Assembly (NCBI GenBank): GCA_008632985.1
Contig: QPGO01000162.1
Coordinates: 1-64,000 of the forward strand
Direction: 5' to 3'
Length of the DNA stretch: 64,000 bases
Origin: Psammoneis japonica
Lineage: Eukaryota
Shown: in pieces, positions 11,971 through 58,240 of the stretch
How the letters are laid out: each line of letters opens with the position of its first letter
Position numbering within the stretch: the stretch's first letter is position 1
Notes under the pieces: generated by a model
The model's database searches: none
What the model saw: the letters and a program-made list of their open reading frames with translations, nothing else
Told to the model about the DNA's origin: nothing
Made by a program: the position numbers and the translations under genes

Positions 11971-11999
11971 TTCAGTGTGGCAAAAGGCACAGGAAAACT

Positions 12000-14687: not shown

Positions 14688-14857
14688 GCCCATTTTTGCA
14701 TTTGGCCGCGCATTGAACTTTTTCAAAATCCGTTTTTTGCCAAATCGAAGGGCAAATGCACACTTCACATGCATTTTAGGGTGTGCACTTACCTTTCAAT
14801 TTTTGAAATGATCAAAATTGCAGGAGTTTAATGCGCTGAACTGTGCAAAAAATCGGC
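14688..14857. repeat. Imperfect about 170-bp palindrome (fold-back/MITE-like)
   Basis: Left arm GCCCATTTTTGCA..GCGCATTGAACT..AATCGAAGGGCAAATGCACAC. Reverse complement of the right arm GCCGATTTTTTGCA..GCGCATTAAACT..AATTGAAAGGTAAGTGCACAC. Confidence 0.6.
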
Positions 14858-20030: not shown

Positions 20031-20231
20031 CATGCATTTGTGCCAGAAAAAGGGTCCAGTGCCCCAACAAAGAAGAAAAGCCCAGAGCTTTGTGGGGGGA
20101 AAGGCAGAGAGCAAGGCACTCCTCTTGCAAAGAGGGTGGTCATGCTGAGTGTTTTGTGGTGGGAGCAGCCAGCAACAGAAGTCCAAGGTGCTGCCACACT
20201 GCTGCTCCAAGCAATGACAACAAACAGCAAC

Positions 20232-20401
20232 AGGAAGAGCACCAACGGGCAAGAGCAACAAGCCAAGGAGCTCCCTGCAAACTGGCAACAGTGGACAACA
20301 CATGCACCAATTTCAGAGAGATTGTTTCGACTGTCCAAAGACATCTGACTGCCACCCACAAACAAACAGTCTGACCATGCACAGTGCAGAGTCAGCTGAC
20401 A
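20232..20401 (-). repeat. 3' LTR of the Copia element
   Basis: Shares GGGCAAGAGCAACAAGCCAAGGAGCTCCCTGCAAACTGG and AAACAGTCTGACCATGCACAGTGCAGA with 27033-27221. On the minus strand it starts TGT, immediately after purine-rich AGGGTGGGA (PPT-like). Confidence 0.85.
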
Positions 20402-26400: not shown

Positions 26401-27032
26401 TTGTGTGGAAGGAGAGAAGCACAGACATGAGATGCTGACAAAAACAATCACCTCGGTCTGCTGAGTCAAAAGGGCTGCCTTGATTTTATGGTCCATCATC
26501 TGTTGAGACAGATTGGATGGTTGATCTGATGATGCAGGGATGGAAACCTTGAGAGCGGCTCTGTTGAAGAGCAACATCACTGGAGACATGTTGAGAGGGT
26601 TGAGGGTTTCCAGCAGAATGAGCTCTCAAAGGATGTGATCCTTGAGTTGATCAATGATGTCATCCTTGGTTGTTGCATGCTTGAGATCCTCAAAAAATGA
26701 ATCCAGATTGATGTGATGACACCACAACAAAGGCTGTCAAAGTGCTTGGTGACTTCACTGCTTCAAGCATGTTGTTCAAAGACAACAGAAACCTCCTTGA
26801 GGGTGTCACAAGTGGGCTTCTTGGGGGCAGAAGGAGTCATGGTGGTGGATGAGGTGCACAAAGTTGTTGATCATGCACATGCAGAATCTGGCGTTGGTCT
26901 GCAAGAGCCTGTGCGCTGATGAAAAAAGCTGTTGGGATCAAAAATGGTGGCCGGCTTGTTCAGCTCACAAACCAAATGAATTGCAGCAGAAGTTGCAACA
27001 CAGAAGAATGACAACCTGATGAGGCCACTGCC

Positions 27033-27221
27033 TGTCAGAGCACTGGTGGGCAAGAGCAACAAGCCAAGGAGCTCCCTGCAAACTGGTGACAGTGGATGAC
27101 ACATGCACTGGCAAGAAAAAGTGAGAGAAGATCTCAGAGAGATCATCTCGACTGTCTGCCAAAGACATCTGACCATCATCTGCAAACAGTCTGACCATGC
27201 ACAGTGCAGATTCAGCCAACC
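27033..27221 (-). repeat. 5' LTR of the Copia element
   Basis: Direct repeat of 20232-20401. On the minus strand it ends ...GACA and is followed by GGCAGTGGCC, a possible mutated PBS. Confidence 0.85.
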
Positions 27222-27499
27222 ATCACATGCATTCTCAAAGCCTTGGCATGAGCTGGGAAGCAACCAATGTCAGGTTCTGAGTCTGCCCTTGGACAAAGGT
27301 GATTTGCTGCATTTGTTGTCATTTTCAGTGGTTGAAGGCCATCTGCCAGTCTGCCTGCTGGCAAGCATGCATGAGAAATGAGAAGAAGTTCACATGTGAC
27401 ATCACCTTGCAGCATGGGTGGATGACAGATGCTGCAGTGGGATGATGAAACTGGGTCATGTAGACAGGAAAAGGGAGGGGTTTGGAGTGGGAAACAGCA

Positions 27500-28170
27500 G
27501 AGCAGCACTCAACTTGGTTGAGCAATGGGCAAGTTGGTCAGCAAGGCACTTGGCAACTGCAAGAATGAGACTTTGAAGGCCCCGCTGGAGTGGTGCAGCA
27601 GTGTGATGAGAGAGGCCAAACTGGGTGAAGGGGGGCACATTTTCCCATGCCACATCAGTGGCTTGGAGGGCTCCAGAGGAGGGAGAGTGGAGTGTGCAGG
27701 TGCATGTGGTGTGGGAAGCTTGACATTGAAAGGGGGGGGGGCTTGGAGGTCCAGAACAGGTGGGGGGCTGAATGGTGTTGGTTGGGGCCAAAAAGCAAGA
27801 AATGGGTGAGACACCCATGGGCTCCCAGATGGCCAATGGCAAAAGGGATGAGGTGCGTGCCTTCTTGGTTCAGAGCAGCCACAGTGGTTGATTTGTGCTG
27901 GGGCCCACGACCACTGTTGTTGAACTTCTTCTGCTTGACACTCACATGGTGTGTGCCTTGGCAAAAGGGCTGAGTGTGAGGACAGGCAAGCCATGAGCTG
28001 GAAGGGGTGGCAGCTTTGAGTTGGTGATGTTGATGGCAAGGCACGTGTGACCCAACGGCGAAGCAGTGAAAGGGGTGGGGGTGAGTTGTGTTGGCTGCTG
28101 TTTGCCTGCATCTGTCAGTCACACACAAGCTGCTGGGTTGTGATGCGGGTGTGGGCAGCTTTGACATGCC
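27500..28170 (-). mobile_element. Possible 3' fragment of a non-LTR retrotransposon (RLE-type endonuclease region)
   Basis: KQKKF...AALNQEGTHLIPFAIGHLGAHG resembles the PFAxDxxGxxG motif at the C-terminus of RLE-bearing elements. Heavily mutated. Confidence 0.4.
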
Positions 28171-28384
28171 AGCAGAAACCCAGTTGCCCCATCAGCAATT
28201 CAAAAATTTGCATGACACCAATGGCACTTTCACAATGATGATGATGCAGCAGTGCCTCCAGTGCATTCCCACCACAGCCACACCACAGTGTGTGCTTCTT
28301 GATGTGACAAAGTTAGAAATGGAGCTGCCTCATTGGCGGCATCTCTGATGGTGTTGCTTTCAAATGAATTTGTGGACTGAATGT

Positions 28385-28980
28385 GGCGTGCATGGTGCTG
28401 GCAGCAGCAGGAGCCTTTCACTGCATTTGTGCTGGTGGCAGTTGGAGCCTGTGCACTGCTAGCAGCAATCAAGGCAGTTGCACTCTTTTCATCTGGTGGT
28501 GGTGGCGGGCACCCCTTTGTGCTGCTGGCACTGGCAGTGGTTGGAGGTTTTTGCTGCTGTCAGGCCCCAGCAGCGGTGGCAGTGGCAGCCTGTGCACTGC
28601 CAGCACTGGTGGTGGTGGGAGCCTGCACACCAATGGTGCTGGTGGTGGTTGGAGCCTTTTGCTGCCAACGCTGGTGGCAGCAGGTGCCTGTGCACTGCTG
28701 CTGTGGCACTGGTGGTGATGGGAGCCTGCTGTGTGGCTGCCAGCACTGGCAGCAGTCGGAGCCTGTGTGCCACCAGCCATCAAGGTGGCTGGATCCTTTT
28801 CATCTGGTGGTGGTGGGTGCTCTTGTGTGCTGCTGGCACTGGTGGTGGTTGGATCTTTTTTGCTGCTGCACCCGCGCACTGCTGGCACTGGTGGCAGTGG
28901 GAGCCTGCACACCACTGGCACTGGAAGTGGTTGGAGGCTTTTGCTGCTGGTGCTGGTGGCAGCAGGTGCCTGTGTGCTGC
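28385..28980. repeat. Degenerate minisatellite, unit about 30 bp (GCTGGCACTGGTGGCAGTGGGAGCCTGTGCAC-like)
   Basis: Recurrent GGCACTGGTGG and GGAGCCTG motifs. A higher-order duplication is marked by ATCAAGG...TTTTCATCTGGTGGTGGTGG near 28468-28505 and 28779-28817. Confidence 0.8.
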
Positions 28981-29150
28981 AAAAGATTCAGTGGTCCCAA
29001 GCATTTGGCAACAAAGCAAAGATCATTGCTTCATTGCAGAGTTGAGAAAAGTTGCACAACTTCCATTGCATCTTTGGCACAAAGTGGTCTGCGGCAATCT
29101 GCCTGATTTTTTGTGACAAGTCATTTAGAAAAAACCCACATGAGACACCA
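28981..29150 (+). repeat. About 165-bp dispersed repeat, copy 2
   Basis: Matches 11808-11970. Confidence 0.9.
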
Positions 29151-32100
29151 TGATGGAAGCTGCTCAGTCTAAAGAAAACTGCACTCACAATGTCCTTTTG
29201 CAGCTTCTTTAAGAAAACATGATGGGCCTTGTGTTGATTGCTTTGCAGGGGCATGCAGCAGTCTGGAAGAAAAACACAACAAACTGGCATTCCCAGTGTG
29301 CAGTCAGCCAGCACCCTTTGTGCCAAATGGCAGCACCATTCTCTCATGAACACACTTGAAAAGATGGAAAAGTGAGAATGCAAAGAAAGACATCTGTTCA
29401 TGAAATGGACCAACCCAGCAAGAAGAAGGACTTTGCTCAATGCTTTGAAACACAACTCAAGAGCAAAACAAACCTGGCTGGTTTCTCCTTGGCACCAGCA
29501 GGACAGAAAGACAGCAGGGGGTGCTGGGCCCAGAGAGGCCATTGTTGTTTCAAAAAAATCCTTCTAAAACAGGAGACAGCAATCAAAAGGGATTTTTCAA
29601 GCTGGTGAAATGTCTTCAATTGATTGTGGTCTTCAAAACTTGTTGTGATGATGCAACCCAATGGCACATCCTGCTGATCATGCACTTGCAGAACTTTCAA
29701 AATTAGACAACAACTTTCTGTGTGTCTTCATGTTCTCTCTTTCTCACAGGGAATCAAGAAAAGAAATTGAGGAAAGGAAGGAAAAAAAACCCTGGACAGC
29801 AACCAAAGGAGGCATTTGTTCAAAAAGCTTTTCATTGCTGCTGATGTCATGGGGAGTTTGCAATGATGGAACATCAGCAGTGGCATGATGCAGTCAGCAA
29901 CAGGTTCCTGTTTGGTGGCTCAAACTGTGCTTGACAATGTGCTGCCACTTCTGCTTGTTTTTCCCAAAGCTTCAAAGTGCAGCTGCCTCTGTGGCTGGCA
30001 AGACAATTGCAGACACAAGATTCACAGTGGAAAGAAAAACGTGCTTGGCTGCATTCACATCACACAGCAAGTCACTCTGTTGTGCAACAACATGCAACCC
30101 ATGACTGCAGATGGGCTGTGTTTTAACCCAAGCAACCCAGGTGTCAAGAGGAGCTGAGCAGGGACCCAGAGCATGACTTTTTCAAAGAAAGAGACTTGAA
30201 AGGCTTTGATCTTTGCAGCAATGCAAAAGGCATCAATCAATTGGAAAGTGAATGTCTTGTGAGGGGGGCACAGCTTGGAGCTGTCTGTGCAGTGATGGAG
30301 CAGCATGAACCACAGCACTTTTGGCCAATGGAGCATGAATGGCAAGCTCAAAGGGCAGCTGAAGGTGCACCTCCATGAAAACAGAACTGTGAATGAGGGC
30401 TTCCACAAGAGCACAAAGACATCAGAAATTGGAAAAAGGAAGAAAGGCCAGTGGGACCAAGACCAGCACTGACCCGGAACAAGACATTCTTGATTGGCAC
30501 AATTGCAAAAACAAGAAAAAACTCACAGAGCTGGACCCCAACTGAATGGAACATTGTGAGATTGGGATCTGCGTGCAAGTCTGGTGAGCTGGGCAATCAT
30601 CATGCAGAGCAAAGTTTTTCTTCCAAAGCCACACCAGGAACTGAAGCATGATCTGTGCACACATGATGATGCACAGGTGCAAGGAATCTGTTTGGATGAC
30701 AGCAAGGAGATGACGAGAACAACAATGTCACACAAATGCAGGCATCAGAAGGACTGGGTGTGGCTCATGTGCCATTCTCCCCTCAAGGGTTTGGCAAATG
30801 GATGCAGCAATGTGCTTCTTCTAGCTTCATTTGAAAAGATGCATCAAGATTCAAGGAGCCACAGCAGACATGTCTCATGTGATCTTGGTCTTGTCTGGCA
30901 CCACCAGATTGAAAGACAGGAGTGTTTGATCCTCTCCATTTGATGCATCATCATCTGATGTGCCATCTGGCCTGGGCCTGTCCACATGACCAAGGCTTTG
31001 TTTTTAGCTCCTCAGACTTTGAACAGCAGCACTTGTCAATGTGCTTTGCAGCAACCCTTGCCATGAGGCTTGAATCTAAAAAACCACACATCCAATTTAG
31101 AGTGCTGCTGTGAAATTGTCCAGCAAGGCTGGCATGGGCTGACCCACACTTCCAGCACACTGCAGTGCAGCAGAAGCTTGCAGGATTGGTCAGAAAGGGT
31201 GCAACCAGAGAGTGGTGCCCCACTGGAATGACTGGAGCAGAAGAAATGACACTTGATTTCATTGTGTGGTCTTTCTGGTGATGAACACAACAGCTGCACC
31301 ATGACAGCAAAGGATGGCAACATTCAGAAAACACTTCAAAAGAAACCATGTTCCACCTTTGGATTTGCTTGTGAAGCAAGCACCAGCCAGAGTCTGAAGG
31401 TTGCTCATTTTCACACCATGAAGAACTGCAGCAAGAACAGGGAGGTTGCCACTCAAAGGAGTGAGCTTGACAAGCCAGCAAGTGGAAGAAAGGGGTGGCA
31501 CAGGACTTGGAGGCATGTGACAAGGAGCCTTGAAGGTGTGGCTGGCTGGCCATTGGAAAAGTTGTTTGTCACACATGGAAACAATGCCGGATCTTGTGCA
31601 GAACAGCTGATGCATTCCACAAATGGGCCATTGTCAATTGATGCTAAAGGATGAATCAGACTCATGCTCATCAGGAGGGCAGAAATGCTGATGTGCTCCA
31701 CAAATGGATGATTGTCAATTGACACCAAAGGATGGATCACATTTGTGCTTGTCAGCACTGCAACAGAGGCAGTGCTTTTGCCAAGCAGAGTGAAGAACTT
31801 GTTTGGCCAGCAGGAACAAAGAAGAATGCTGCTTGGACAGATGGACATGGGCAGAAGCAGTTCAGAGATTTGACCAGGCATTTGTTGGTGGTTGTTGCCA
31901 AAGGGAGCAGAATTTGCACTGGATTCTGTGCTGAAAATTCCCTCACTCTGCAGAAAATTGTGAACGAGAATGGCAAGCATGCAAACCACAAGGAGTCAGC
32001 AATGCCAGTGATTTTCCAAAATGAGAAGTGTTGCTTGACTGTGGCAAAGATGAGCAATTGGCAGAGACAGCCAAAACAGGCTGTCAAGGCCCAAGGTGAC

Positions 32101-32939
32101 ACCCTCTGAGAAGGGCAACACCAGTGCAAGAGGGTGTGTGGAAACAAATGCAGCAGGTGCTGAGGGTGTGAGCAGCTGACATGAAAAAGTGCACGACTTG
32201 CATCCAGATTCTCCAGAGCTTCTCAACAAAGTTTGAGTTGCCACAATGCATTTTTCTCAACTCACATGCATTGGAGTGTGCTGCCACAAACTTTTTTGCT
32301 CCCTCCCTTGATGAAGCCAGAAAGCACAGAAATGATTTCTCTTGCATTGCTGGCAAGCAGGTTGGCCACCATTTGTCTTTGTCTGGTGCAACAACTTGCT
32401 GAGTGTGAGCTGGACAACATGAATTCTGGGCTGGTCACTTGAAAGGTTGGGATGCTGGACTGCATCAATGCAGTGGTGCACCACTTGCTTCAACGATGAA
32501 TGTGTTGCTCTCATTGAGGTTGTGTCAACTTGTTGATGCACGTCTTTTGCGTTTGTTCCTCTTTTGTGCTTCTTCTTTTGAGGCTCTTTTGCATCAATGC
32601 CAACAAGCTCTCATCATTTGCTGTCACCAGAAATGGGCTGATTTTCTTGTTCATGGTGTGAGATTGAGAAGAGCAATGGCTCAACATGTCATTGAGCCTG
32701 TTGGAAGGACCAGGCCCTGTGTTCTTTGTGGACAAAGTGTTGCTGAGTTCCCACACCAGCTCAGCCACATTTGGCTTGCTGTTGCTGCTTTCTTTGCTCC
32801 TTGCTGCAGCTCTGAAGCCATCCATCATCTGAGGATGCCACAGGGATGTTTTCTGTTGTTCCCAAGGCCCCTCCTTTGAGGACTGCCAGCTGATGGGTGT
32901 CTGGAGCAGTTGGTCAGAGAAGGCATGATGGAATGTGCA

Positions 32940-33075
32940 GGTGATGAAACCCCTGTGTGCCACTGGCATTGCAAGAGGCATTGTCAGATTGATGTTGATT
33001 GAGTTGAGAGTTGAGACTGCCATCAAGGGCGTGCATCAGACAGAAGTGCAAAACTTCAAATGCAAGTTCTTGGAA
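32940..33075 (+). repeat. Third, partial, mutated copy of the 3' flank of gene 9020-9739
   Basis: CCTGTGTGCCACTGGCATTGCAAGAGGCATTGTCAGATTGA...TTGAGACTGCCATCAAG...TGCAAGTT matches 9767-9871. Confidence 0.8.
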
Positions 33076-33334
33076 CATCAGAGTGCACGATGTCGCAACA
33101 TCTGCACACATGACAAAAACACATTGCCACATCATAAAATCTGCTCATCTGCACATGACGGTTTTTGTTGTTTGGCCAATTGTCAATCTCCTGCCATTCT
33201 TCATGTTTGAACACAGATGTTTTTTAATTTTTGTGCTCTGCCTTTTTCACAACAACCAACGGTCTTTAACGACAAGCCAAACATTGCAGCTGCATGCAAT
33301 GAAATTTTCATCATGCAAAGTGTGCACCAATTGT

Positions 33335-33824
33335 TCAATCAACAACTGTGCTCCAATTTGCCCAGTCATCCGCATTGTCCTCTTCATTCCACATGTCTTG
33401 TCCACTCTCTTGCAAGAATTTCAAACATGCCGCTGCCGCGTTGGATGTTTCCTCATCACCGTTCCAAAAAAGCCACACTGCATTTCTTGCATTTGGGTGG
33501 ACATCATCAAGAGGAAGAGGTCCCTCGAAATGCTGAATCGCATCACTGCTCCCCTCTTGACATCGTGTCGTCAGCTTCTTTTTCTCTTTCTTCATTTTGC
33601 CCGTCCCATTTTTCTCTTCCTTCCTCGTCTTGGCGCCACCTGTTTTCACCGTCTCCGGCATCTTTCCATCCAAATCCTTCTTTTTCATCAATCCCGTTGC
33701 CGTCGCCTTCATCTCTTGTTGTTGTTGTTTTTTTCTGTTGTGTGTCACTTTGTTTTGGTTCCATGTTTCTGACTTCTCTCTGTGCTGTCTCCATTTCCGA
33801 ATGTTTCTTTATGATTGTTCGCAT
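33335..33824 (-). pseudogene. Lys/Glu-rich small gene relic inside the TIR element
   Basis: Overlapping ORFs 33543-33824 and 33335-33748 read as one charged protein ending AVWLFWNGDEE...MWNEEDNADDWANWSTVVD. Confidence 0.4.
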
Positions 33825-34138
33825 GCGTCACTTGAATTCACCCACGTGTTTTTCACGTGCCTTAACGCGCATGTAGAAATCCATGTTTTTTTCCAGTGCA
33901 TGCACCCTTTCTCCTGATGCTGTTTCGCACAACATTTTCTTCCATCAATTCTACACTCCGCACCGCCCTTTCCCGGTGTGATCTCACGCAGGATTTCCCT
34001 GGGAGAAGTCACATGCGCGTCTGGTGGGTTTTTGTGTTTAAAACTCCAAATCGCACCAGGTGCACATGTGACTTCTCCCACACACCACACTGGCACATTT
34101 CTGCAGAAACCAGATTTTTTGGTGTTGGAACAGCAACC

Positions 34139-37100
34139 ATGGCGCCGCGTGACCTGTCGATTGCCTCTTTGTCGCAAGACAACAATGATTCCTGCCTCAA
34201 GGAGGCCGCATTTGAATCTCTCTTTACCAACAGTTTTGGAGTGATTGATGGCAATGAGCAGAGCCGTGTCAAAGCGACAATCGAGATGGCAAAATCCAAG
34301 GTTCAGTTTCACCGCGATTCCACTTGTGATCCCTCTCCGAATTGGATCGCGCTTGCCCATGTGTGGCAAAAGTCGAAGGGCAGACCTCATTTTTTTGTAG
34401 AACTGATGGCTGTGAACCGCATTGTTGCAAAGGAACTTGGGTGCAAGAGCTTGCTGCACTTTCTTTCCGCAAAAGGATGGAGTCACTCCAGTCAAGGTGC
34501 CAAACATCCTCATGCATTGGAGTGTTGCCATGCTCCCAAAGCAGAGGACATGAAAGTCGTCGGTGACAAGGCAAAATCAACAGACATTGCAACCAACATG
34601 ATGGCAAAGATTTCCATGTTGCACAAGCTTCTCCATGATCCCGGATTGTGCGACCCAAAGGGAGAGCCACTTGTCAAGCACACTGAGCTGAGAAGTTTTG
34701 AAGGGAAGGTTTTGCGTTACGCGCAATGCCTTCACATTGGTTTTTTGATTCTTCGTGACAAGATTCCACCGCACGCACCTGAAAGGAATGGTGATTGCAG
34801 TCATTGGCTGTGCTCCCTGTTCGGCGAATGTGATGAGACATCAACTTGCATCAACTTTTTGGAGAATTTCCTGGCTCTTGGTCACTGTGAGACGACCAAA
34901 GATGAATGCCCTGTGTCCTTCCCTGAATTCATAAAGTCGTTGTTCCACCAACACAAAAATTCTTGGGAAAAGCCCACGCGACTGGCGATGCTCGATGTCG
35001 AGCGAGAACAAATGTGTGCAACACATGTCGATGAGACTCTTTTAAGATGTGTGAAAATTGATCGTGTGGTTTCTGCCGCTGACAATTCCGGCAAAAGCAA
35101 GGCTGCAAGGGATCGTTTTGAGGCCATGTAGAAAGCCAGGCTTTGTGACTTTGCCACTCAGCACAAGAAGAAAGAAATCGGCAATGCAATTCCATCCGTT
35201 ACAAATGATGCTCGGAAATGAAAAAAATCCAAATGGCACGAATCCATCATGTTGTTTGATTGATTGTTTGTGCTCCTCTTCTCACCTCCAATTCTTCTGT
35301 TCTTCTTGCCACCTCTTTAGCCGCCTCCCTTTGCTCCTCAAGCCCCAGTCTCAAAAATCCCAAAGATGGCGAACCTTCTGATGTTTCTCAGAACGAATCG
35401 CTGATTCTCCAAGATGTGCCAACTCTCGAGGAACAATTTGAATGTTCCCGAACAAAGTGGCCGACCCTCGGTGTGACTTGTCAGTCGCCTCCTCCTCCGC
35501 CAGACAATTTCACAAAAGAAAAAGCTTGTGAAAGTGTTTCCTGAACCATCTCCGTTTGCGATTCCGGGTGAGGTGAAGTCACAACATTCTCACCTTGTCG
35601 TCTTTGAGGAAACCCCCATTTCAAGTTCCTTCAAGGGGAACTGTGTCAAGCACCAGTCACTCCACAGCATCTCCGATTTCTGCTTGGTGAATCACCTCCG
35701 CAAGCCCATGCATGGTTTTGAAAATGGTGCAGCTCCCAATGATCCGACGCAAGAATCGATGGTTGCAATCACTTGCCTGACCCAGTCAACCTCTCATTTT
35801 TCCAACGTGGTCACTTGTTTGCGATGCACGGACAAGATGCATCAGAAATGCTTTTTTGGATTGCGATTCAGTGTGTCGTCGACACTCCGTGCAGTGTTGG
35901 AACATGGTGAGCCGAACAAAAAAAGGGATGGACCAGAATGCAAGTTGCGCTGTCAGATCTGTTTTGGTTGTTTTTCGTGGACGGTGAGTTAGCTGAAGTG
36001 GGACCTGCTCACAAGCCTGGTGCTGTCTTTGGCAGGGACAAGTGGGAGAAGCTTCCAAAGGATGTGCAGGTGATGATGGCCTCAATCTTGGATGCCGCGC
36101 AACTCTGCGAGGACGAAATTAATCTTGTTGCTTTGAAAGAAATGCGTTCCTTCCATGACCCGTGCCGTGATGGTCTTTTCGCGGCTGAGCTCCGCAAGAT
36201 GGTTGGAGCCAAGCATATTAGAAGGGAAGGCGTGGAAATTCAAGTGAAGTGCATCTCGTCGTCCGGCAAAAAATCCGCCAATTCGAAAACCAAGCCACAC
36301 ATTGACAAAGAGGATTGTGACATGGATGGGTGCACCAAGACTGGTGCTCTTTGCTCATCACTGTGAGACGCTGTTGGTCGCTCTTGGTCGTTGAAGGTTG
36401 TCACTGCATCCAAAGGCAATGCTGGAAACCACGTCAGTTTGGCGCATGGGTGTGCCGAGTTCCGATCGCGTGTGCATGGTCATTTCGCAAAACTTGATCT
36501 GTCACATGCTGCAGAAATGATGAGATGCCGTGGCCCTTGTCGTCCTCCGTCGGGCAAGCTGGCCCACAGAAACATCAAAGATTTTTTCCTTGACCCTCAC
36601 TCTGTGTGGGTGGAAGAGGAAATTGGCAAGCCAAATCTTCCGTCCGACACAGTTGAGCATCCCGTCATTGTCATGCCAAGGAAACGTCTTCCGTTTGCCA
36701 TCGTGAAGGACTTTAATTTGTCGTGCGGTTGCTCGGCAATCATCGACAACCTCAATAGGTTGGTGCACACGATTGCTTTCGTTGCGCCATTGTGGCTGGG
36801 TGTCAAACCGGATTCTCCCGTTTTCACTGCTTGTTGTGCAACACAGATGCTGTGAAGCGTCCTTTCGTGGCTGGCGATCGTGTCCTTCATTACTTCAGAG
36901 AAGCTACGAGGCCGTTCGGCAGCATTGCGGGGGATCGCAATGACCGACGCATGCAGAGCCCAGGACTCGATTTCGAGGAGGTTCATGTGGCAGAGTGCGG
37001 GACGAAACTCAACGGTTTGATGGACTTGCTTGTTGGCGGACTGGTTGTTGTCATCGACTGGATCAATGACAATGTTGGCAAGCCAACGTTCCACAAGGCG

Positions 37101-38660
37101 ATCGAGGACATGTTTAAAACCGTGGTCCAAACATGGGATCATACAGGTGCTGATTGTGGAGAGTTCAGATGCATGAACTCTGTGCAGATGTTGATGCTGT
37201 GTGGCACGGGGATCCATCCTCACCCTGACCTTCGCAATCTTGTCTATCTGGCAGCCAAGTTGGGAGCGGCGAAGCAAATGGAGGAAATGAAGGTCCCGGT
37301 GGAGGAGCGTGATTTACTCTTGGAACACAGAGGGTGATTTTGATTTGGAAGACTGTGGGGAAAGAATGGCCCAGAGTCTTGCCATGTGACCTGAGTGTGG
37401 CTCGTGAAAAGATGGGAATCTGCGATGTCTTTTGTTCGGACAGCATCTGTTGCTCTTGTTCTCTGATGGGCAATCAATGATCAAGCAGCTTGGAAGGTGT
37501 GAATGGGAGCCAGTCCCATTCGTGTCGATTGATGAAGTTCGAGCCGAACTGGAATGGCAAAGAGAGGTTGCTTTTTCATGGCAATCACATTTGTTTTTTG
37601 TCTGATTGTGCTGACATTGTCACATTGAATTCTCGTTCTAACAGGAAGAAGGCCGCCGGTGATTTGTTGTCATTCGCAATGAACAAAAGTGACGATTGCA
37701 AGGAGGAGTCAATTGACAAGAAAACAAGCGAACTTCCAACCACTCACATGGGTGAAGAGGACAAAAGCGAAGAGCCCATTGACGATGAGCACAACCAAGT
37801 TGCACATTGCTCTGAGGGTGAAGAGGACCACAGCAACTCAGGAGATTGTTTCGCCAGTGACGAAACTGACGAGGAAGCACACAATGTGCTGTGGTTGGGG
37901 ATGACCCATCCGCTCAATGCAAGGCATCCATCTTCTCAAGAATTGTGCTCTGAGAAGGGGGTGGCCTCAGTGTCATCCGACCAACACAGGTGAGACGAGG
38001 CCCGCGCAATGGCATTTGAGGAAACTAACAAAACAATCACAAACATCATTTTGACAGTTTCTCTCCAAGACGGCCATCCTGATCTGCACTTAAATTGCAA
38101 TGTGAAAGCAAGAGATTTCGTCAAGAGAGTCAAGCAGCAGTTTGAGAAACTTGTTGATTTCGAAAATCATGGGTTTGACCAAATCATGTTGGACTGCCAC
38201 TGGATGCCAGATGGAGAGTGGCACGACAGTCATTTTGGGTTGACTCAATTTTTCCAGAATCTAATTGATCTTCGGGCCTTGCTCTCCAAAAACAAAGAAG
38301 GGGGGGCGCAGTGATTCCCTTTGCTCTTGCAACCTTCTTCCAGGTTGTCAAACAATGGAAAAAAATTGTCGGCTGTGTTTGACACACGCACAATGGACAA
38401 TGATGCTGCAAAGAGCTGTGCAAGTGCATTCTTTGCAAGCAACCTTATAACCCAAGAACAACGAGAATGGTGGTTGGGAAAGCCTTCCGATCAGGAAGAA
38501 GCTTGTCTTGGAGTTTCCGAAGAAGACATCAGAATGAAAGCAACAGAAGGTGCTCGCACCGCACTGCTTCACGTGTGCCACAATGACTTTGCCAATTCTG
38601 AAAGGATCAAATTCATCATGTTTGCAAGAAAGAGTTGGGAAATCACTGTGAGTGAATGAC
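34139..38660 (+). pseudogene. Large fragmented gene of unknown function inside the TIR element
   Basis: Protein-like consecutive + strand ORFs (34139-35131, 35528-35992, 35938-36366, 36391-36855, 36792-37337, 37490-37993, 38009-38314, 38321-38659), almost Tyr-free. Includes PHIDKEDCDMDGC at 36295-36333. Confidence 0.55.
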
Positions 38661-39387
38661 AGATTGACACGCGCACCCCATTTTAGAAACAAATCTGACC
38701 AAAAATTCCTTCTGTCCTGTGTGGCCCAAACAAATGGGGCCTTTTCTTGCGCTTCCACTGCTCCTGGACATTCTTCATAAACCAAAACATTGTCCCCAAT
38801 TGCTTCGACAGGGACAACCCGTAACTTGGGTGAGTGCTGAGTCTTCTCAGGCATTGAAAGCCAGTTGTTTCATTTGTGATCAAGCTGCCAGCGACTGACC
38901 AAGTCTGCATGCTGATGCCGGTTGCCTCACAGTTCTCTGGTCAATGTTGACAGGGCCTTCATCAAGACTGACTCATGCTCGTTGTCCTTGTCTTGTGGAT
39001 GAGAAGGGAAAAGAAGAACAACACGCAAAAAATGGCGGGAAAATGGCAAACATTGCATCATCTTCCAGATTTGGATGATTCTTGTGGGTGTGATGTGTCT
39101 GCATTTTGATTTTTTATCTGGCGTTTACAATGAACATTGTTCCTTTTTGTTTGCTGTCAAAATGCAGGACATCATCTCCGTTGAAACGCAATGACAGCCA
39201 TGTCAAAAAGCAAGTTGGACTGTTCATTGTCATGTGCAAACACATTTTCAAATTTCAATGTCACTGACAACAATTTGTGCAATGTTGTAGAGAAAAATGG
39301 AGTGGCTGGCTGTCTCAACACGACCCAGACGATGGTTGCACTGTCAAACAGCAACACTCCTCTCATTGTTGCCGTGTAAAGATCAAG

Positions 39388-40722
39388 ATGTCGTCTGCAG
39401 CACTGCCGGCAAAGAAGAGAAAGAAAAATGAGACTGTTGAGCCAATGAGCCCGAGACTTCAGGCAGTGTTGAAGAGAACAGGTGCGCAGGCAGCACATGG
39501 TGCGTTGAAATCAGAAGTTGAGAAGGTGGCTAGAAATGATCTCTTTCCACAGGTGAAGTTTCTCAGTCCATCAGAATTGGCAAGCAATGGGAGCATCTCA
39601 ATGTTTGTCAAGAAACAGATTGCGGGTGGCAACATGGACACTTCAAATTGGTCAGGAACTTGGGAGGAATGGGCAAAAAAGGCGGCAAAAAGGCAAATTG
39701 ACAATTGCAGAAACACGGTGTGTTCGGCTGTTGGGGCGGAGGCAATGGCCCGTAAGTCAAGTGACCAATGTGTGTGATTCAAGAGTTGCGTGCATCTCAC
39801 AAGAAGAAGATGGTGATGCTTTGTCTGCACAGGCGTTGTTGCCAAGGAAGAGGGAAAGGAAAAAGAAAAGAAACTCAAGGCGGCAGTCAGGAGGAAAAAG
39901 CAAAGCAGGAAAAAGTCAAGCCGTGACAAGAATGAAGAGAATGACATCCCGTTTGTGCCGACATGGGATCCGTTTGGCCTGGACACTGTCGCCGGTGGCA
40001 AACGAAGGAACAAGCAGGCATGCAAGTGGTTCTGCGATCACATCCTGCCTCAAACCAAGCAAAAGCAGGCATGGAGCAGCGCCATCAAAACTGGGAATGC
40101 ACAGGTCTCACAGTTGTTTGCGGCAGGTGACGAAGCTTTGGCGCTGTCAGCTGTGGAGAATTGTTGGCAGGTGTGGGCATGCAGGAACAAGGAGGAGGCG
40201 GTGGAAGAATTGGGTGAGGAAATGGAGCCCGAAGAAACAAGGCCTGCCCCTTGGTGCACGAAGCCAAAGAAACAATGAGTGTCTTGGGGAGACGACGGAA
40301 TCATTTTGTTCAACGATTTGTGCAAAGAGGTGACGAAAGACAGAGACTCAAAGGAGGGCAAGGAGTTTGAAAAGTGGCATGCGGAGATCAAGAAAAGCAA
40401 GTGCGAGAAGTCCAGAGAAGCAAAAAAGAAGAAGAAGACAGCACCGACCGGTGATGCAGAGAAGGTGAAGGCAATGAACAGCCCAATGGTGGAGAGCAGC
40501 ATGGACAATGACAGCAACAACAATGAGCAGGAGGAAGGTGCAAAAGGCAGTGCGAATGATGGAGGAGATGAGTCCAATGGAGACGAGTCCGATGGAGACG
40601 AGTCCAATGGAGACAAGTCCGATGATGATCATCAGCTTAGTTTGAGAGAGTTGCAGCAAGAAAATGTGTGCACAGTTGGCACAGCACTCGGTCATTGCAC
40701 TGCAGACGTGACAAGGGATTGA
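39388..40722 (+). pseudogene. Hypothetical protein relic inside the TIR element, with an acidic GDESN/D-repeat tail
   Basis: VARNDLFPQVKF, a probable intron from GTAAGT (39752) to CAG (39832), then WFCDHIL..GDEALALSAVENCWQVW..PWCT..SWGDDGIILFNDLCKEVTKDR. In-frame TGA at 40276. Confidence 0.55.
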
Positions 40723-43700
40723 CTTGACCGATGAAATGCTTTTCTTGTTTAAAACAATGTTTGTGAAAATTGACAAACCAAGGTTTGTGTGGCAATGCAA
40801 TCACGCATTGGCGTGTGGCAACAAGGTGGAGGCAGAAATGGTGATGTGGATGCAGTGAAAACAGCACACACAATTCTCAATGAGTCATTGCAATGTTGGC
40901 ATGCCAAACTTGCAACCAGAGGTTGGCCTGTCACCATGTGACAACAACGTTTTGCAATGTTTTAATAAATTGTCATCATGTAAATCCACACATTTTTAAC
41001 ATTTCCTGCACTCTGATGTGGTGACTTGTGTGCAGAATGCATCAAAGACCAGGCTCTGCATTTTTTGATGATGACATGCATTGCATGGTGCATGCATCCT
41101 GCTCAACTGTGATCTGGGCAATTGCTTGCTCATCAAACAACCAAGAATCTCATGAGATGTTTTGACAAAATGTTGTGTTGGCAATGCAAATGCTGGTGCA
41201 CCAGATCACAAAATCCTCTGCCACCTCATTCAAGCCTGACAGTGAACTCTTTTGGGGCTTTTCAATTGTGTGAACACCTTCATGATGCCCACATGACAAA
41301 TGTTGACCAATTGCAAACAGCAAGTTCCACATGAATTTGCACCAGATCACACGCATTTTGCTGATCATCCTCCCATCACACAAGACTTGGCAGGGCTCCA
41401 GTCACGTGAGAGCAGCAGGACATTCTGTGTTGTTGGCTGGTTGTCAGCTCAACAAGAGGCAACCAAGTGGGAGCAAAGAGCAACAGTGAGCAACAACTTT
41501 GTTGCATGGCAGCCTGTGCAACATTTTCCCAGCTCTGTCCTGCATGTGCAAAGTGATCCTCTGGAGTGGCCACAGGCACACTGGGAGAAGTTGGCAACAG
41601 AAGTTTGAACTTTTTTGGTTCAATTTTTTGCCAAAAAATTCCAAGCTCTGGAATCCAGAGCATCTGCCATCAATCTTCATGCACTGGCACATTTGTTTGC
41701 AGCAATTGTGGGTGGTCATTCATTGGAGAACCATTGAGAAATCATTGGGGCTGAAAACAGTGATTTTCAATCATCACAAATGGCACTGTTTGACACCAGG
41801 TGCAACTGAGAAGGCATGTCCCAGAGCTGAAACATGTGCCTGACAAAAACGCCAATGCACAGCACAACACACAGAGCCTTCATCTCATGAACAAACATTC
41901 TTCTGCAGAGTCACATCCATTGCAGCAGCAAGAACAATGAATTTTCAGGGTGCCTCTGCACAGCCACAGCATTGATTCTGCACAGAAATGAGCAGTTTGT
42001 GAATTTTTGCAGCAGAAGTTTGGACTTTTGCAACCACCTTCCAGCACTGGTGCTTGTGCAGCACAGCCAGCATCCAGAGGTGCACAAATTGTCTGTTGTT
42101 GTTTGCACATGGGCACTCACACACTCAGCACATGGGTGAATGACAGCACGCAAGGAAGCACACATGCAGATGACAAGATGATTTGTGCACCTCTCCAGCA
42201 CAGTGGGTCAAACCAATTGGTCTGGCAGGATGTTGCCAATTGCCACCATGGCCAACATAAAATGATGGAGAGTGACAGTCCAAAGCAAGAGGTGAGAAGG
42301 GCATGGCAATTTTCTTGCATGGTTGCTTGCAGCCCCTCTTTGACTTCAACTTTTCTTCTCAACACACGCCAGCTTTTGACATCAAACTCCATCTTGAGCA
42401 GCCAGAAAGTGGCACACCCACCCATCCAACATCTTCAAAAACTGTCACTGCAGCTGCCCCAGTGCTTTTTGATCAATCCATTGACTGTCCCAACCTGGGT
42501 GCAGGATCACCAAAGACAATGCCTTCTCAAGCCAGAGAGCAAGAAATGAAAAAAGAAAATTAAGACTGCAGCAACAGCAATTTGCGGGGAGATGACCACA
42601 AAGATCACTCTTTGAAATTTGCCAATTGAGAAATGTGGGAGCAATCAGTTGCTGCTGCTCATGAATGTCAGACAAATCCAAGGTTTGCAACTTCATCCAT
42701 GCTGACTGGTTTGGTGGTCTTGGGCACTGAAAAAGCCCTGTGTCTCAGTCTGATGCATTTGGCAGCTCCCTCATCTCATGTTCTCAAAACCATCTGGGCA
42801 ACATGTTTTGCTGCAATGTCCATGAAAAATTCAGTGGTGTGGTCACCTTGTGTGCAAATCAGAGTGCAAGGACAAACAAGCATGCCGCCGTCTCTTTTGA
42901 CATTGTTGAAGAGGATTTCAATGGGCATTTTCTGCATGAAGAATCCAAAGGAGATGCTTGGCATCATGTCATGCCTGAAGACATTGTTCTTCACAAGATT
43001 GGCATGGCACTCAGATGTGACAAGCTGTTGAAAGTAGAAACCTTGGCTCTGACAGCATTTCCATGCACAAAAGGCAGAGCAAATCAAACCTGACAACAAG
43101 GCATTGGAGTGGTGGCAATGCCAAGCTCAGGAGAGAAGCAGCCACATTCTCAAAGGTGTGCTCTAACAATCACATTGGAGGCATGCAATGCAGCAAGTGC
43201 AACAAATGTTGAAGAAGCTCCAAGGTTCATGAATCCAGACATGAAGTCAAAGACACAGCAGAATGAAAAGGAGTTGAAAGAGAAAGACTTCAAGCATTGC
43301 AAGTGAGTGCACAAGTGCTGCTGGGCACCCACAATGTTGGCCAAACTTTTGCTTGCCTGGTTTGCTCACATCCTTTTGCTTGTTTGGCTGTGTCATGAGC
43401 TCTTTGCAGAATGGAATGATGACATTGCACCTGTTGAATTCTCAGAGCTTGGGGTGGTTGTTTGGTTAAAACAACACAGAGCAGAGCAGTCGAGAAGAGT
43501 GCGAAGAGACACCCCTTGAGAGTGCTGCACACACAAATGACACAAGAGAGCAAACAAAAGTGGATTCTCAAACAGCCTTGAAGCCCCATTGCATTGAAAC
43601 CACTTTTGATTTCAAACTTGCTCCAAAAACAACAATGGAAGAAGATGACAATGACATGAGTTTTTCCACGATGCTGGAAATTTGCCACATGTTTGTTGGG

Positions 43701-44305
43701 CACATTGGACTCAAATGCAAGGAAACTGTGAAAGAGGCTGTGCAGATCAAGTGTGGAAATCTTTGCTGGCAAGCTGAAGGGACTTGCTCACTGCTTTTTT
43801 CCTGAAGCAAATCATGGTGCATGTTCGGAGCGCTGAAACAAGGCCTCTTTGTGCACGCAATGGCAACAATCTCAAATCCCACAGCAACTGCGGAGGAAAG
43901 TGGTCCATGCATTTGAGACTCTTTGACTTATGTTGCGCGAATCTTCTTAGCTTTCACACAAGCATGTTTTATGCTTTTAGCCCTGGCACCTGACTCTACC
44001 TACTCTCTAGCTCTAGAGCTACAGCAGCTAGAGTAGAGAGAGAGGGAAGTCAGACCAACACGACGGGTTAGCGTGTGCAACGTCCGGGTTTGCCACCAGA
44101 ACCTGACACCAGAGCCCCTGATCAGGTCGCTAACGACTTTGTTATCGACGCTGCCTGGTGCGGGGTGGCGGGTCCACGATCCGCGCGATCGATCCGGAGA
44201 GAAAGAGATCATACATACAGTACGGTGGTACAGCAACCGTCACACCAAAAACGAAAACGCAATACGTGCTCTAATCACTTCTCGCCCTCCTCTTACTTGT
44301 AAAGA

Positions 44306-45571
44306 ATGGAAAACATGGATACTGATTTGATGGACTTATCGGCGGAGAGTTGTCTGTCCTTGGGAGATTCTTTTGCAGTCGACGAAGCATACGAGTCGGC
44401 TCTTGACGCATACGCAGCGGCGTTGTCGCTGTTGACGACTACTAAGGACGACAACTGTTGGGCGCTGCGTTTGCGAACCTTATCGCATCGAGCTGCCGCT
44501 TTTCTGGTGTGTAAGCGGTATCAAGAAGCTCTTGAGGATGCGCAGACAGCCCTTTCGATCCAAGATACCTCTGGATTGCGGCCAGGCGAGCGAGAACTGT
44601 GTCACAAGCGTTTGGGCATTGCTGCATACAACCTTGCAAGATACGACGAAGCTCTGGTGGCCTTTGAGGCCGCAAAGCAACTGGCTAGTCTTAATCATCG
44701 AGATTTGAAGGTTTATGAAGAATGGCTTCAACGATGTCTGGATGTCATGTCGCCATCAAAAGCTACTTCTCAGAGTGCGCATTCAGTGACCTCACCCCAT
44801 TCTGATCTCGACAGACCTTCCACTACTGTTCCGTCTCCTTCCTCTCGCAACCCGGCCGTCGCCGCAAAATCACACCCGGAAACTCCTTCAGTGATCAAGA
44901 CGAAACCACCAGCAGCTCAGTCCCTTCCCAAATACCAGTACTATCAGAACAGTAGTTTCGTGACTATTGCTCTGTTGGAAACCAACGTAAAGCCACAAGA
45001 TCTTCGAGTCGATTTTGAACCCAAAAGGCTCACTGTCATTCTTACCAAGGGCAGTCAGTCCTTTACTGTCATTTGTGGTAGTCTTACGGATGAAGTTGTG
45101 GTGGAGAAGTGCCGTATCGTGTACAAGGATGAAAAGGTTCTCATAAAGTTGCGGAAGAAGGATTCTGTACACGAGTGGCAACAGCTCATTAGCAAGGTTG
45201 AAGAACCGACAATTCCAGAAGCGAGCTCTCTGGAATCAGATAAAATCCCTACTTTAGACTCGTCCAAGACACGGGCCTATGCTTCTCATCGTGACTGGGA
45301 TGCCATTGAACGCAATCTAGAAGAGCAGGAAAAGATCGAAAAGCCAGAGGGTGACGAAGCCTTGAACAAATTGCTCCAGCAGATATACGGCAATTCCGAC
45401 GACGACACTCGACGAGCCATGATCAAGTCTTACCAGACATCAGGAGGCACCATTCTGTCTACAGATTGGAATGATGTCAAGGAGAAGGACTACGAAAAGG
45501 AACGAGTCGCACCCAAGGGCATGGAATGGAAAACGTATGAGGGAGATAAATTGGAACAAAAGGAAGATTAG
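44306..45571 (+). CDS. SGT1: SGT1 co-chaperone (TPR-CS-SGS)
   Basis: N-terminal TPRs, CS domain (PKYQYYQNSSFVTI...KVLIKLRK) and SGS domain (DWDAIE, GDEALNKLLQQIYGNSDDDTRRAMIKSYQTSGGTILSTDW). Confidence 0.95.
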   Translation: MENMDTDLMDLSAESCLSLGDSFAVDEAYESALDAYAAALSLLTTTKDDNCWALRLRTLSHRAAAFLVCKRYQEALEDAQTALSIQDTSGLRPGERELCHKRLGIAAYNLARYDEALVAFEAAKQLASLNHRDLKVYEEWLQRCLDVMSPSKATSQSAHSVTSPHSDLDRPSTTVPSPSSRNPAVAAKSHPETPSVIKTKPPAAQSLPKYQYYQNSSFVTIALLETNVKPQDLRVDFEPKRLTVILTKGSQSFTVICGSLTDEVVVEKCRIVYKDEKVLIKLRKKDSVHEWQQLISKVEEPTIPEASSLESDKIPTLDSSKTRAYASHRDWDAIERNLEEQEKIEKPEGDEALNKLLQQIYGNSDDDTRRAMIKSYQTSGGTILSTDWNDVKEKDYEKERVAPKGMEWKTYEGDKLEQKED

Positions 45572-51274: not shown

Positions 51275-51821
51275 GAGCCATGCGCATGAGGCCGAATTCG
51301 CACTTGTGGCACCTTTTTGCGGCGGTGTGTAAAGTACTGTACTGTACTTCTACCGTACCGGTATGCTGTACCGTGATTATCATAGAAAATCTGTGCCAAA
51401 ATCAGAATCTGTTTCTATTTTTCAGGGCTTCAGAAAATCTGTACCCATTCTGAACGGAAATCTGGAATCTGTATCCCAGTACAAATTTACGTAGTTGCGA
51501 CACTGCTTTCATCATTGTGGTGGTGCTTGGAGCTGACGGTGCTTTTTGTTTTCGTTGTTGCTTTGAACAGCTTGGTCAGAGGACACACATGCCATGAGTG
51601 AGCAACCGTGTTGAAAGCGAACACCATCAGCTGCAGCAGCATTGTCAGAGGAAAATGATGTCAGCGTGAAGAAAGCAAGAGCAGAGCGCTCCAAGAAACA
51701 GGGCAACAGGAAGGAACTGCCACCTGAAGACAACAGCTCCTCTGGTTTCTTGAGTGGATCTGTCTAAGACATGCCCCACCATTGCTTCAAAGATTCCGAG
51801 GGTGGAAGAAGAAGCAAATCA

Positions 51822-52025
51822 AATGCCATCTGTCGTGTCGCATCGAATGCAGCATCGCGTCGGATGCTGTGTGTCGCGTTGGACACCGTCTGCAGCATCA
51901 TGTCAGATGCCAGCCACAGCACTGCATCCAATGCTGTCTGCAGCATCATGTCGGGTGCTGGCTGTTGCATTGCATCAAATGCTGTCTGCGTTGTCATGTT
52001 GAATGCTGTCCATCGAATGCTGTCA
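51822..52025. repeat. Degenerate tandem repeat, unit about 24 bp (AATGCTGTCTGCAGCATCATGTCG-like)
   Basis: Recurrent (A/G)ATGC(T/C)(G/A)TC...GCATC units. Confidence 0.6.
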
Positions 52026-52139
52026 ATCACACTGCGTTGGAAGCTGTCTGTCTCGTCTCATTGAAAACTGAGTGACTCGGAGGGAGTGACTTGCTTGCAA
52101 CCAGTTTTAGATTGGATTCCATGCTGCTTGGCACTCCAG

Positions 52140-52300
52140 TTTGTTTGTTCAATGCCACTCTAGATTCCACACCGGCACTGCTCTGGGTCGTTTGTTCAAC
52201 ACTGCTCTAGATTTAGATGCTGCTCTGGGATCTTTGTTCGGCGCAACTTTCTAGATTAGACACTGCTCTTGGTTCATTGTTCAATGCTGCTCTAGATTCA
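52140..52300. repeat. Tandem repeat, unit about 42-48 bp (TTGTTCAA..CTGCTCTAGATT..CTGCTCTGG)
   Basis: Four TCTAGATT cores near 52159, 52206, 52250 and 52291. Confidence 0.75.
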
Positions 52301-58069: not shown

Positions 58070-58240
58070 TCCAAAGACATGCTTGGTTGGAGCATCTGGA
58101 CTGGCATGCAACCAGCAAATTGAAGCACAGATGAAAGCACTTCTGTGTGGACTCTGAAAACATGCTTGGTTGGAGCATCTGGGGGCTGGCATGGCAACCA
58201 GCAATTAAAGCACAGACAACAGCACTTTGTTGTGGACTCC
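58070..58240. repeat. Tandem duplication of about 83 bp
   Basis: ACATGCTTGGTTGGAGCATCTGG...GCAACCAGCAA..AAGCACAGA..AGCACTT..TGTGGACTC occurs twice. Confidence 0.85.

Follow-up and report, generated by a model that had tools for sequence, protein, structure and literature searches.

To our knowledge, every known repeat-directed hypermutation of DNA (repeat-induced point mutation (RIP), RIP-like mutation of TCG, CpG decay and APOBEC editing) is a deamination of cytosine, C:G>T:A. In the 64,000-nucleotide stretch of the diatom Psammoneis japonica analysed here (contig QPGO01000162.1; the whole stretch is called the window), repeats show the equally thorough opposite change, A:T>G:C, limited to the dinucleotide TpA. 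The analysis centres on the element at 33075-41019, one copy of a DNA element bounded by terminal inverted repeats (TIRs). In this element the TpA change leads CpG decay, has its own sequence preference and occurs almost alone, and is thus not a mere shadow of CpG decay.

RIP, as found in Neurospora and in fungal transposons, resembles the pattern in the window in that context-specific transitions wreck all reading frames and in that the borders next to normal genes are sharp. According to the accessible portions of two papers, RIP changes C to T at CpA, creates TpA and raises both TpA/ApT and the AT content (PMC4165359, PMC12730594). In the converted DNA of the window, in contrast, TpA is destroyed (observed/expected (o/e) 0.03-0.09), CpA and TpG stand at 1.5-1.9 and the G+C content is 0.48-0.49. 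The truffle methylome likewise shows the opposite pattern, with TA enriched near methylated sites in the portion of the report that was available (PMC4165359). Moreover, RIP mutates all duplicate copies, whereas of two paralogous stretches in the window one (8983-9921) is normal and the other (12218-13163) converted, although selection acting on the gene copy might obscure this point. RIP also requires a DNA methyltransferase of the RID type and a sexual cycle.

The decay of CpG by deamination of 5-methylcytosine (5mC) provides a second likeness: CG was replaced by TG or CA at 49 of 57 sites of the paralog pair, and CpG o/e is 0.11 in gene-free blocks versus 0.99 in gene blocks. Judging by the sequence, the CpG half of the pattern is probably ordinary 5mC-type decay, whose expected footprint it has. 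It covers only half of the pattern, however, as such decay spares TpA, whereas here the loss of TpA precedes that of CpG and has another flank preference. Modification of thymine is known from dinoflagellates, where 5-hydroxymethyluracil (5hmU) made by TET/JBP homologs was described, in the part of the study at hand, as enriched at repeats, with a TA/TC preference, and as linked to transposon silencing (PMC11572971). The element in the window is predicted to encode a TET-like fold; yet mutational loss of TpA is not reported in that part of the dinoflagellate study, which moreover concerns another group of organisms (PMC11572971). Fungal DNA transposons that carry TET/JBP genes ('TET+'), including KDZ elements, are described in the available section of another paper (PMC12730594). 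Like them, the element is bounded by TIRs and carries a gene with a predicted TET-like dioxygenase fold; unlike them, it yielded neither a recognisable transposase nor a Pfam Tet_JBP match, the presumed distal His is mostly Ser in its relatives, a C-terminal helical domain is added to the protein and the host is a diatom. For diatoms no TET/JBP-carrying DNA transposon was found described, and for TpA erasure in repeats of diatoms or other organisms no description was found in the literature outside subscription journals. The footprints of ADAR and APOBEC, finally, consist of retroelement RNA or cDNA that is hypermutated by strand-coordinated transitions, including A>G. Transposon copies are hypermutated by transitions here as well, but the targets are a TIR-bounded DNA element, the duplicate of a gene fragment and whole domains; both strands are affected equally, and there are neither runs nor long terminal repeats (LTRs).

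The window is eukaryotic, with few introns, and at a resolution of 500 bp it forms a sharply bordered mosaic of gene blocks and gene-free blocks. The gene blocks (21,500 bp) have a CpG o/e of 0.99 (54.7 per kb) and a TpA o/e of 0.61 (43.1 per kb). In the gene-free blocks (27,481 bp) the corresponding ratios are 0.11 and 0.03, and those of CpA and TpG 1.90 and 1.84, with an unchanged G+C content of 0.49. ApA is undiminished (o/e 1.15 in the old blocks and 1.14 in the gene blocks), and TpT and ApT are likewise left alone by the TpA-directed change. Because TAA and TAG are almost gone, long open reading frames (ORFs) crowd all six frames of the gene-free blocks. In practical terms, converted DNA that is poor in TAA and TAG and full of long spurious ORFs misleads both gene and repeat annotation, and converted transposon proteins escape profile searches.

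Within the element (7,945 bp) the two dinucleotides have fared differently. It holds 287 CG (36.1 per kb, o/e 0.64) and 49 TA (6.2 per kb, o/e 0.09), versus 20 CG (3.6 per kb) and 11 TA (2.0 per kb) in the adjacent flanks (3 kb on the left and 2.5 kb on the right). Both densities differ between element and flank (rate ratio, CG p=8.6e-43, TA p=3.1e-4), and both are lower than in the gene blocks (CG p=6.7e-11, TA p=8e-72), that of CpG by about a third. The step in CpG coincides exactly with the two edges of the element: on the left, 5 CG in 32000-33074 are followed by CG at 33088, 33094 and onward, and on the right the final CG inside lies at 40948 and the next one at 41352. An earlier note on this DNA, made from the letters alone, had claimed that CpG is frequent and TpA almost absent inside the element, that its ORFs are nearly free of Tyr and that the flanks are poor in both dinucleotides. 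The counts bear this out: the region 36400-37330, from which its example strings came (located at 36462, 36541 and 36873/37097), holds 54 CG and 8 TA, the 11 long ORFs of the plus strand have 3 Tyr among 1,967 residues, and the flanks show the low densities just given. The CpG depletion of the element and that of the flanks, which the note had proposed to compare, are indeed far apart (o/e 0.64 versus 0.11). One of its phrases went too far: TpA loss 'without CpG loss' is right in that CpG is mostly kept, but overstated in that ~35-45% of it has already been lost. The TpA conversion is near-complete but unfinished, with TpA 3-fold above the flanks.

The stretch 33075-41019 is a discrete inserted element, because the TIRs, the step in repeat depth and the step in CpG share the same edges. 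The inverted repeats are perfect, and a 12-mer of them occurs once per orientation in the window. Copy number was taken, as summed contig depth, from aligned contigs of X1, the single public run containing the stretch. This depth amounts to 4,000-29,000 in the bins covering 33073-41314, versus 59.5 over single-copy genes, and to 35-640 in the flanks. The 31-mer contigs of the run reach lengths of up to 315 kb, and one of 4,083 bp corresponds to 29021-33103, has 0 differences to the converted left flank and ends at the edge of the repeat. The insertion proposed in the earlier note is therefore confirmed, and its proposed youth relative to the flanks is probable, given the high summed depth beside low-copy flanks. 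No target-site duplication was recognised among the bases beside the TIRs; conversion of the flanks after insertion could mask a short one. LTRs or long TIRs of at least 40 bp are absent, and a transposase was not recognised either: no ORF or relative matched a Pfam family, and the element's 3' third, like much of the protein of 1,100 aa, is still without assignment. One contig of run X1 joins 40929, in the 3' end region, to 33302, in the 5' region, with 37 foreign letters in between, a sign that other copies in the genome may be rearranged or arranged head to tail. Shortly before the first Met of the element's gene, at 34000-34080, lies an imperfect inverted repeat of 40 nt (83% complementary, with a spacer of 1 nt).

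The direction of the changes is apparent from the paralog pair. The 57 CG of the unconverted copy correspond in the converted copy to 25 CA, 24 TG, 4 CG and 4 other dinucleotides, and its 22 TA to 10 CA, 6 TG, 1 TA and 5 others. AA and TT were retained at 72-75%, versus 1 of 22 for TA. Outside CG and TA (non-YR sites, in which Y is a pyrimidine and R a purine) the pair diverges by 15.6%; these changes lean to transitions in the converted paralog (70 versus 40), and converted copies also bear indels. CA and TG are swapped at 22 of the 150 CA/TG sites of the pair, the expected mark of an independent conversion of ancestral CG or TA in two copies. Paralogous contigs of the left flank in run X1 likewise differ from the window by adjacent CA<->TG swaps, and those of the right flank do so at 41732-3, 41918-9, 42725-6 and 42754-5. 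The CA and TG outcomes alternate randomly along the pair (37 runs, versus 33.3 +/- 3.9 in shuffles); strand-coordinated runs of outcomes were looked for and were absent. Since the unconverted copy exists beside a converted paralog, duplication alone is no trigger of conversion. A third, likewise converted copy, 32952-33076 in another converted block, matches 9767-9880; this homology stops exactly at the left edge of the element and is not carried on by the right flank.

The scarcity of Tyr and TpA in the element was acquired. Its relative P0001 has a Tyr content of 5.2%, and 18 aligned Tyr of this protein correspond in the window to 8 Cys (TGY), 5 His (CAY), 3 Phe, 1 Tyr and 1 Ile. At 47 positions where the majority of the relatives have Tyr, the window has Cys (TGY) at 15, His (CAY) at 13, Phe at 9, Tyr (TAY) at 3 and another residue at 7, whereas in the same comparison 44 of 67 Phe and 15 of 18 Trp were unchanged. 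Similarly, an in-frame TGA within 37880-38635 aligns with an Arg of the relative P0122, as expected of CGA>TGA, and Tyr of P0122 is matched by Cys or His. The Tyr content is 1.9-5.2% in 29 of the 33 relatives. The possibility raised in the earlier note that the family is intrinsically poor in TpA and Tyr thus finds no footing: most of the relatives contain Tyr at the level just given and the replacement by Cys and His can be followed site by site, so that, as far as aligned sequences tell, the loss of TpA is mutational and not intrinsic. DNA relatives in the unconverted state were absent from the metagenome scans (with P0001 and alignment A3) and from the viral scan (with P0126). Two short relatives, P0144 (0% Tyr) and P0138 (0.7%), are poor in Tyr and rich in His and Cys; converted copies of this protein family may already be present in public protein collections.

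The two processes are separable and TpA goes first, as the earlier note had proposed. Among the 128 windows of 500 bp, 58 are low in both dinucleotides, 44 are high in both and 26 are low in TA and high in CG, whereas the reverse combination does not occur (0). In the codons of the element's gene, TAY was converted at 28 of 31 informative positions and Arg at 15 of 34 (19 still CGN, 15 changed to CAN, TGN or TGA). Survival relative to the gene blocks is 0.14 for TA and 0.66 for CG in the element, and 0.19 and 0.78 in the other TA-low zones. Assuming first-order decay, the ratio of TpA to CpG conversion is ~4.7 from the survival values and ~4 from the codon counts. Conversion of TpA is therefore ahead of CpG decay ~4-5-fold per site, with youth, CpG protection and inherited depletion partly confounded as the source of this lead.

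The flank preference sets the TpA process apart as well. TA survival in the old blocks relative to the gene blocks is 0.3% for RTAY, 1.3% for YTAY, 4.5% for RTAR and 17% for YTAR (chi-square p=1.4e-20), and in the element the values are 1.9%, 13%, 17% and 35% (chi-square p=1.7e-6). The effect of the flanks on CG is weak and opposite to that on TA. The scarcity of RTAY together with the excess of YTAR implies that TpA conversion has a palindromic tetranucleotide preference, and the pattern fits two independent half-sites of the palindrome. Among the leftover TpA of the old blocks, YTAR (TTAA, CTAA/TTAG and CTAG) accounts for 36 of 54, versus 18% in the gene blocks, and RTAY for 1 of 54. A single-strand rule by which A is deaminated in TAY was considered and rejected: the outcome is not tied to the 5' base (Tyr codons, Fisher p=0.14), and the trend is opposite.

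The element carries the remains of one large gene. The stretch 34220-37331 runs colinear, through frames 2, 2, 1 and 3, with the relative P0126 (1,135 aa). Intact relatives thus encode a single large protein, whose reading frame is interrupted in the window copy by frame changes and TGA stops. Residues 78-401 of P0126 align within the N-terminal part, residues 503-632 with 35558-35971 and residues 646-878 with 36010-36741. For the 421-aa ORF at 33866-35131 one relative was found in the database, P0001 (BLASTP, 60% over 333 aa); the ORF at 36759-37337 has 31 (E<=1e-3, best 4.3e-29), which are 600-1,135 aa long and match it close to their C-terminal end; and the region 37481-38656 has P0122 (53% identity). 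A Pfam search returned no family for 16 + 8 ORFs of the element, for 12 relatives or, at E<=10, for 18 members of alignment A4, and a sequence profile search of the PDB returned nothing meaningful. Foldseek gave no match in the PDB at E<=1e-3, with CcTet at E 0.21 and a probability of 0.30, and a search of the ESM Atlas with P0001 gave only leads below 0.9 (DUF2828/TROVE).

The fold was approached through structure models, namely the AlphaFold model of the relative P0123 (mean predicted local distance difference test score (pLDDT) 73.6) and a separate model of the domain only (pLDDT 71.7). The best fold matches of the domain model were NgTET1 (Z 8.7, 167 residues aligned, root mean square deviation 4.5), TET2 (Z 8.3), FTO (Z 7.7) and CcTet (Z 7.1); all 50 among the matches listed are 2-oxoglutarate (2OG) oxygenases, and the whole-protein model gives the same top matches. 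On these models the relatives' middle domain adopts the double-stranded beta-helix fold of 2OG-Fe(II) dioxygenases and is TET-like in its nearest matches, although the TET-over-FTO Z margin of ~1 is too small to assign the subfamily. The residues H224 and D226 of the HxD motif are invariant in 7 of 7 sequences of alignment A5 and in 8 of 8 of A4, the window copy retains the motif as H-I-D when its translation is read against the alignment, and the downstream 2OG-binding residue R262 is invariant. The presumed distal iron-binding His, placed nine residues before R262 by motif spacing and not by structural superposition, is replaced by Ser in 7 of the 8 relatives compared and kept in one; most of the relatives thus lack the distal H...R motif of the TET/JBP dioxygenases. 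The C-terminal helical domain has a weak predicted fold likeness to PUGT gp46 (Z 6.8) and to AGOG glycosylases (Z 5.2-5.6). PUGT is a phage 5-phosphomethyl-deoxyuridine glycinyltransferase, and in a helical domain such a likeness is a lead only.

Considering all of this, the explanation that we favour, with fair though by no means full confidence, is that two context-specific transition processes, of which the one at TpA leads, acted on a TIR element that had inserted in an older converted block. The insertion and the copy number of the element, the direction of the changes, and the separability and order of the two processes are direct results of the comparisons; the steps that join them are proposed. 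Gene-free, repeat-derived DNA of the diatom would undergo two distinct transition processes that both end in CpA/TpG. One would change C to T at CpG, the expected footprint of 5mC deamination, and the other T to C or A to G at TpA, by an agent that we leave unnamed. The element landed in an older block in which both processes were complete, and the window copy has by now had ~85-90% of its TpA and only ~35-45% of its CpG converted; both clocks would have begun at insertion. The TpA process would be driven by an enzyme in silenced chromatin. The A:T>G:C change is near-saturating, occurs at the self-complementary TpA on both strands and is confined to sharp silent domains; we consider an enzyme-made base modification most likely behind the loss of TpA. 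The preferred chemistry is a modification of a base at TpA on either strand. A dioxygenase of the TET/JBP type could oxidise the methyl group of thymine to 5hmU or 5-formyluracil (5fU), which mispair with G, or adenine could be deaminated; we make no choice between the two. In the accessible part of one paper, the principal mutation arising from 5fU is A:T>G:C (PMC7051996). The predicted TET-like gene inside the element raises the interest of thymine oxidation but proves nothing.

That conversion acted on the window copy after its insertion is partly shown by the differences between the copies, of which the best-supported 40 of 779 variable places were considered. Position 39149 is TG in the window and TA in 18 of 18 other contigs, and 36754 and 36962 are CA in the window and CG in all other contigs. 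Overall the copies differ by 636 transitions versus 130 transversions. The commonest class of likeness to the window copy is 90-95% (2,354 of 6,274 contigs), close to the ~7% pairwise divergence that we estimate for independent conversion.

Several points weigh against the favoured explanation. Position 33811 is TA in the window and TG in 24 of 24 other contigs, so that some differences private to the window copy run against the direction of conversion. As many as 1,278 of the 6,274 contigs are at least 99% alike to the window copy, a class that is inflated by short contigs but leaves room for amplification after partial conversion. The ancestral densities of CpG and TpA were assumed to be like those of the gene blocks, as only converted DNA copies were obtained. 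With duplication alone insufficient, as the unconverted paralog shows, the trigger could be a chromatin domain or a repeat, and the choice between CA and TG is without link to the half-site, in Tyr codons as well as in the paralog pair.

Some of these points would suit an inherited depletion, by which the source copies were already poor in TpA from earlier rounds and only the loss of CpG followed the insertion. The class of near-identical contigs agrees with this, as do the great abundance of the family in spite of the broken state of all frames here and the two relatives, of 33, that are poor in Tyr (P0144 and P0138). However, with 28 of 31 Tyr sites replaced, a protein can hardly be expected to function, and an autonomous source should accordingly be unconverted. 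The preponderance of transitions among the copy differences, the agreement of the commonest class with the divergence estimated for independent conversion and the presence of TA in other copies at 39149 point the same way, and we consider an inherited depletion unlikely.

A somewhat different view holds that the CpG of the element is protected, so that neither youth nor rate need be invoked: its CpG would be unmethylated, and the element would undergo a methylation-independent TpA process like any other repeat. Such protection might stem from transcription of the element or from reversal of 5mC by its own TET-like dioxygenase. The modelled fold, with its likeness to NgTET1 and TET2, speaks for this, and the fungal DNA transposons with TET/JBP genes are thought, in the part of the paper at hand, to strip silencing marks (PMC12730594). 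In addition, two other TA-low, CG-high zones adjoin genes: 59001-60500, and 51501-54000, which borders the MYG1-like gene at its 5' end. Yet the window copy has only a disrupted gene, and a trans-acting enzyme would have no preference for its own copies. Moreover, ~35-45% of the CpG of the element has already been lost, most relatives (7 of 8) have Ser in place of the presumed distal iron-binding His, and the high copy number fits youth by itself. Protection thus appears quite unlikely as the source of the pattern.

A more far-reaching form of this idea, which we regard as distinctly doubtful, is that the footprint was left by an agent which the element itself encodes. The modelled dioxygenase, possibly together with the glycosylase/PUGT-like domain, would then act in repeat chromatin and oxidise pyrimidines of YpR steps at their 5-methyl group. 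Oxidation of 5mCpG would reverse methylation and preserve CpG, whereas TpA would yield 5hmU or 5fU, which would pair with G and end as CpA/TpG; once the protection of CpG lapses, old blocks in the fully converted state would be left behind. If true, the loss of TpA without that of CpG would mark the activity of a thymine/5mC oxidase borne by a diatom transposon, and the process would be a new enzyme-driven A:T>G:C hypermutation of repeats.

The TpA change might also be a by-product of 5mC processing, if long-patch, error-prone repair of deaminated 5mC restored CpG and miscopied A:T at TA. A likeness is found in somatic hypermutation, in which polymerase eta acts at WA motifs (W being A or T). 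Both losses share their domains and sharp borders, no window is high in TA and low in CG, and the non-YR changes of the converted paralog lean to transitions. Nevertheless, ApA is undepleted although WA includes AA, and the specificity for TA in the paralog pair is extreme when set against the retention of AA and TT. The palindromic preference for RTAY and the existence of a TA-low zone with a CpG o/e near 1 at 59501-60500 argue further against a repair by-product, which we hold to be very unlikely.

It is hardly credible that the pattern is an artefact of the sequencing of modified heterochromatin, with 5mC called as T and a modified T or A at TpA called as C or G. Miscalls at methylated motifs are known from nanopore reads, and run X1 may come from the sample of the window's own assembly and so not be independent. 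However, contigs as long as 315 kb and a converted flank reproduced faultlessly over 4,083 bp need accurate reads, the CA<->TG swaps between paralogous copies are unlike a fixed miscall, and the converted copies have indels and 15.6% of ordinary divergence. An avoidance of TA by the element family through intrinsic composition or selection, for which the low TA count itself and nothing further speaks, is equally implausible in view of the Tyr content of 29 of the 33 relatives, the site-by-site replacement of Tyr by Cys and His, and the extension of the depletion to non-coding parts and unrelated blocks.

Table 1. Coordinates of the features of the window discussed in the text.
Feature	Position	Strand	Remarks
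Unconverted paralog, in gene block	8983-9921	+	blastn 73.7% over 974 bp versus 12218-13163
Converted paralog, in converted block	12218-13163	+	alignment A1 with 8983-9921
Left flank, old fully converted block	19501-33074		CpG and TpA nearly gone, CpA/TpG ~1.9; low-copy in run X1
Element, one copy of high-copy TIR-bounded DNA element	33075-41019	+	TpA nearly erased, CpG ~two-thirds kept
Left TIR, 13 bp	33075-33087	+	perfect reverse complement of 41007-41019
N-terminal part of large gene	34139-35350	+	frame 2; tblastn P0001 residues 1-407, 58% identity
Predicted 2OG-Fe(II) dioxygenase-fold region	35558-36741	+	frames 2 then 1; in-frame TGA 36364-36366
C-terminal helical domain region	36750-37379	+	frame 3; tblastn; relatives of ORF 36759-37337
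Further coding region	37880-38635	+	two in-frame TGA; P0122 53% over 251 aa
Right TIR, 13 bp	41007-41019	+	contig ends of other copies loose behind 41018
Right flank, old fully converted block	41020-43900		dinucleotide counts
SGT1 gene (TPR-CS-SGS)	44303-45571		
MYG1-like gene			
PP2C gene			
Ribosomal L1 fragment			
Converted blocks	1-3500, 10501-14500, 19501-33074, 41020-43900, 54001-58500		
Second TA-low, CG-retained zone	51501-54000		500-bp windows: CG o/e 0.44-0.71, TA 0-0.21
Third TA-low, CG-retained zone	59001-60500		with F-box-like ORF
F-box-like ORF	59676-60332	-	0.5% Tyr; weak Pfam match, E 1.4e-4

The best named relatives of the SGT1 gene are from the diatoms Nitzschia, Seminavis and Cylindrotheca (44-48% identity). 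In the converted blocks the proteins of old transposons have become nearly invisible to profile searches because of the conversion, and a Pfam scan of 93 ORFs of these blocks returned only a sub-threshold hint of a Copia-type SH3 domain and a weak F-box match. The former lies at 22859-23239 on the minus strand and concerns the SH3-like domain of a retroviral/Copia polymerase (E 2.2e-4). The converted left flank also holds two tandem units of 81 nt at 31598-31759, which are 74% alike. Apart from the zones listed in Table 1, the region 14501-15500 is low in TA with CG retained. The F-box-like ORF sits in a zone that is low in TA and normal in CpG at the edge of a converted block, and may be a host gene or pseudogene that was hit by TpA conversion without loss of CpG.

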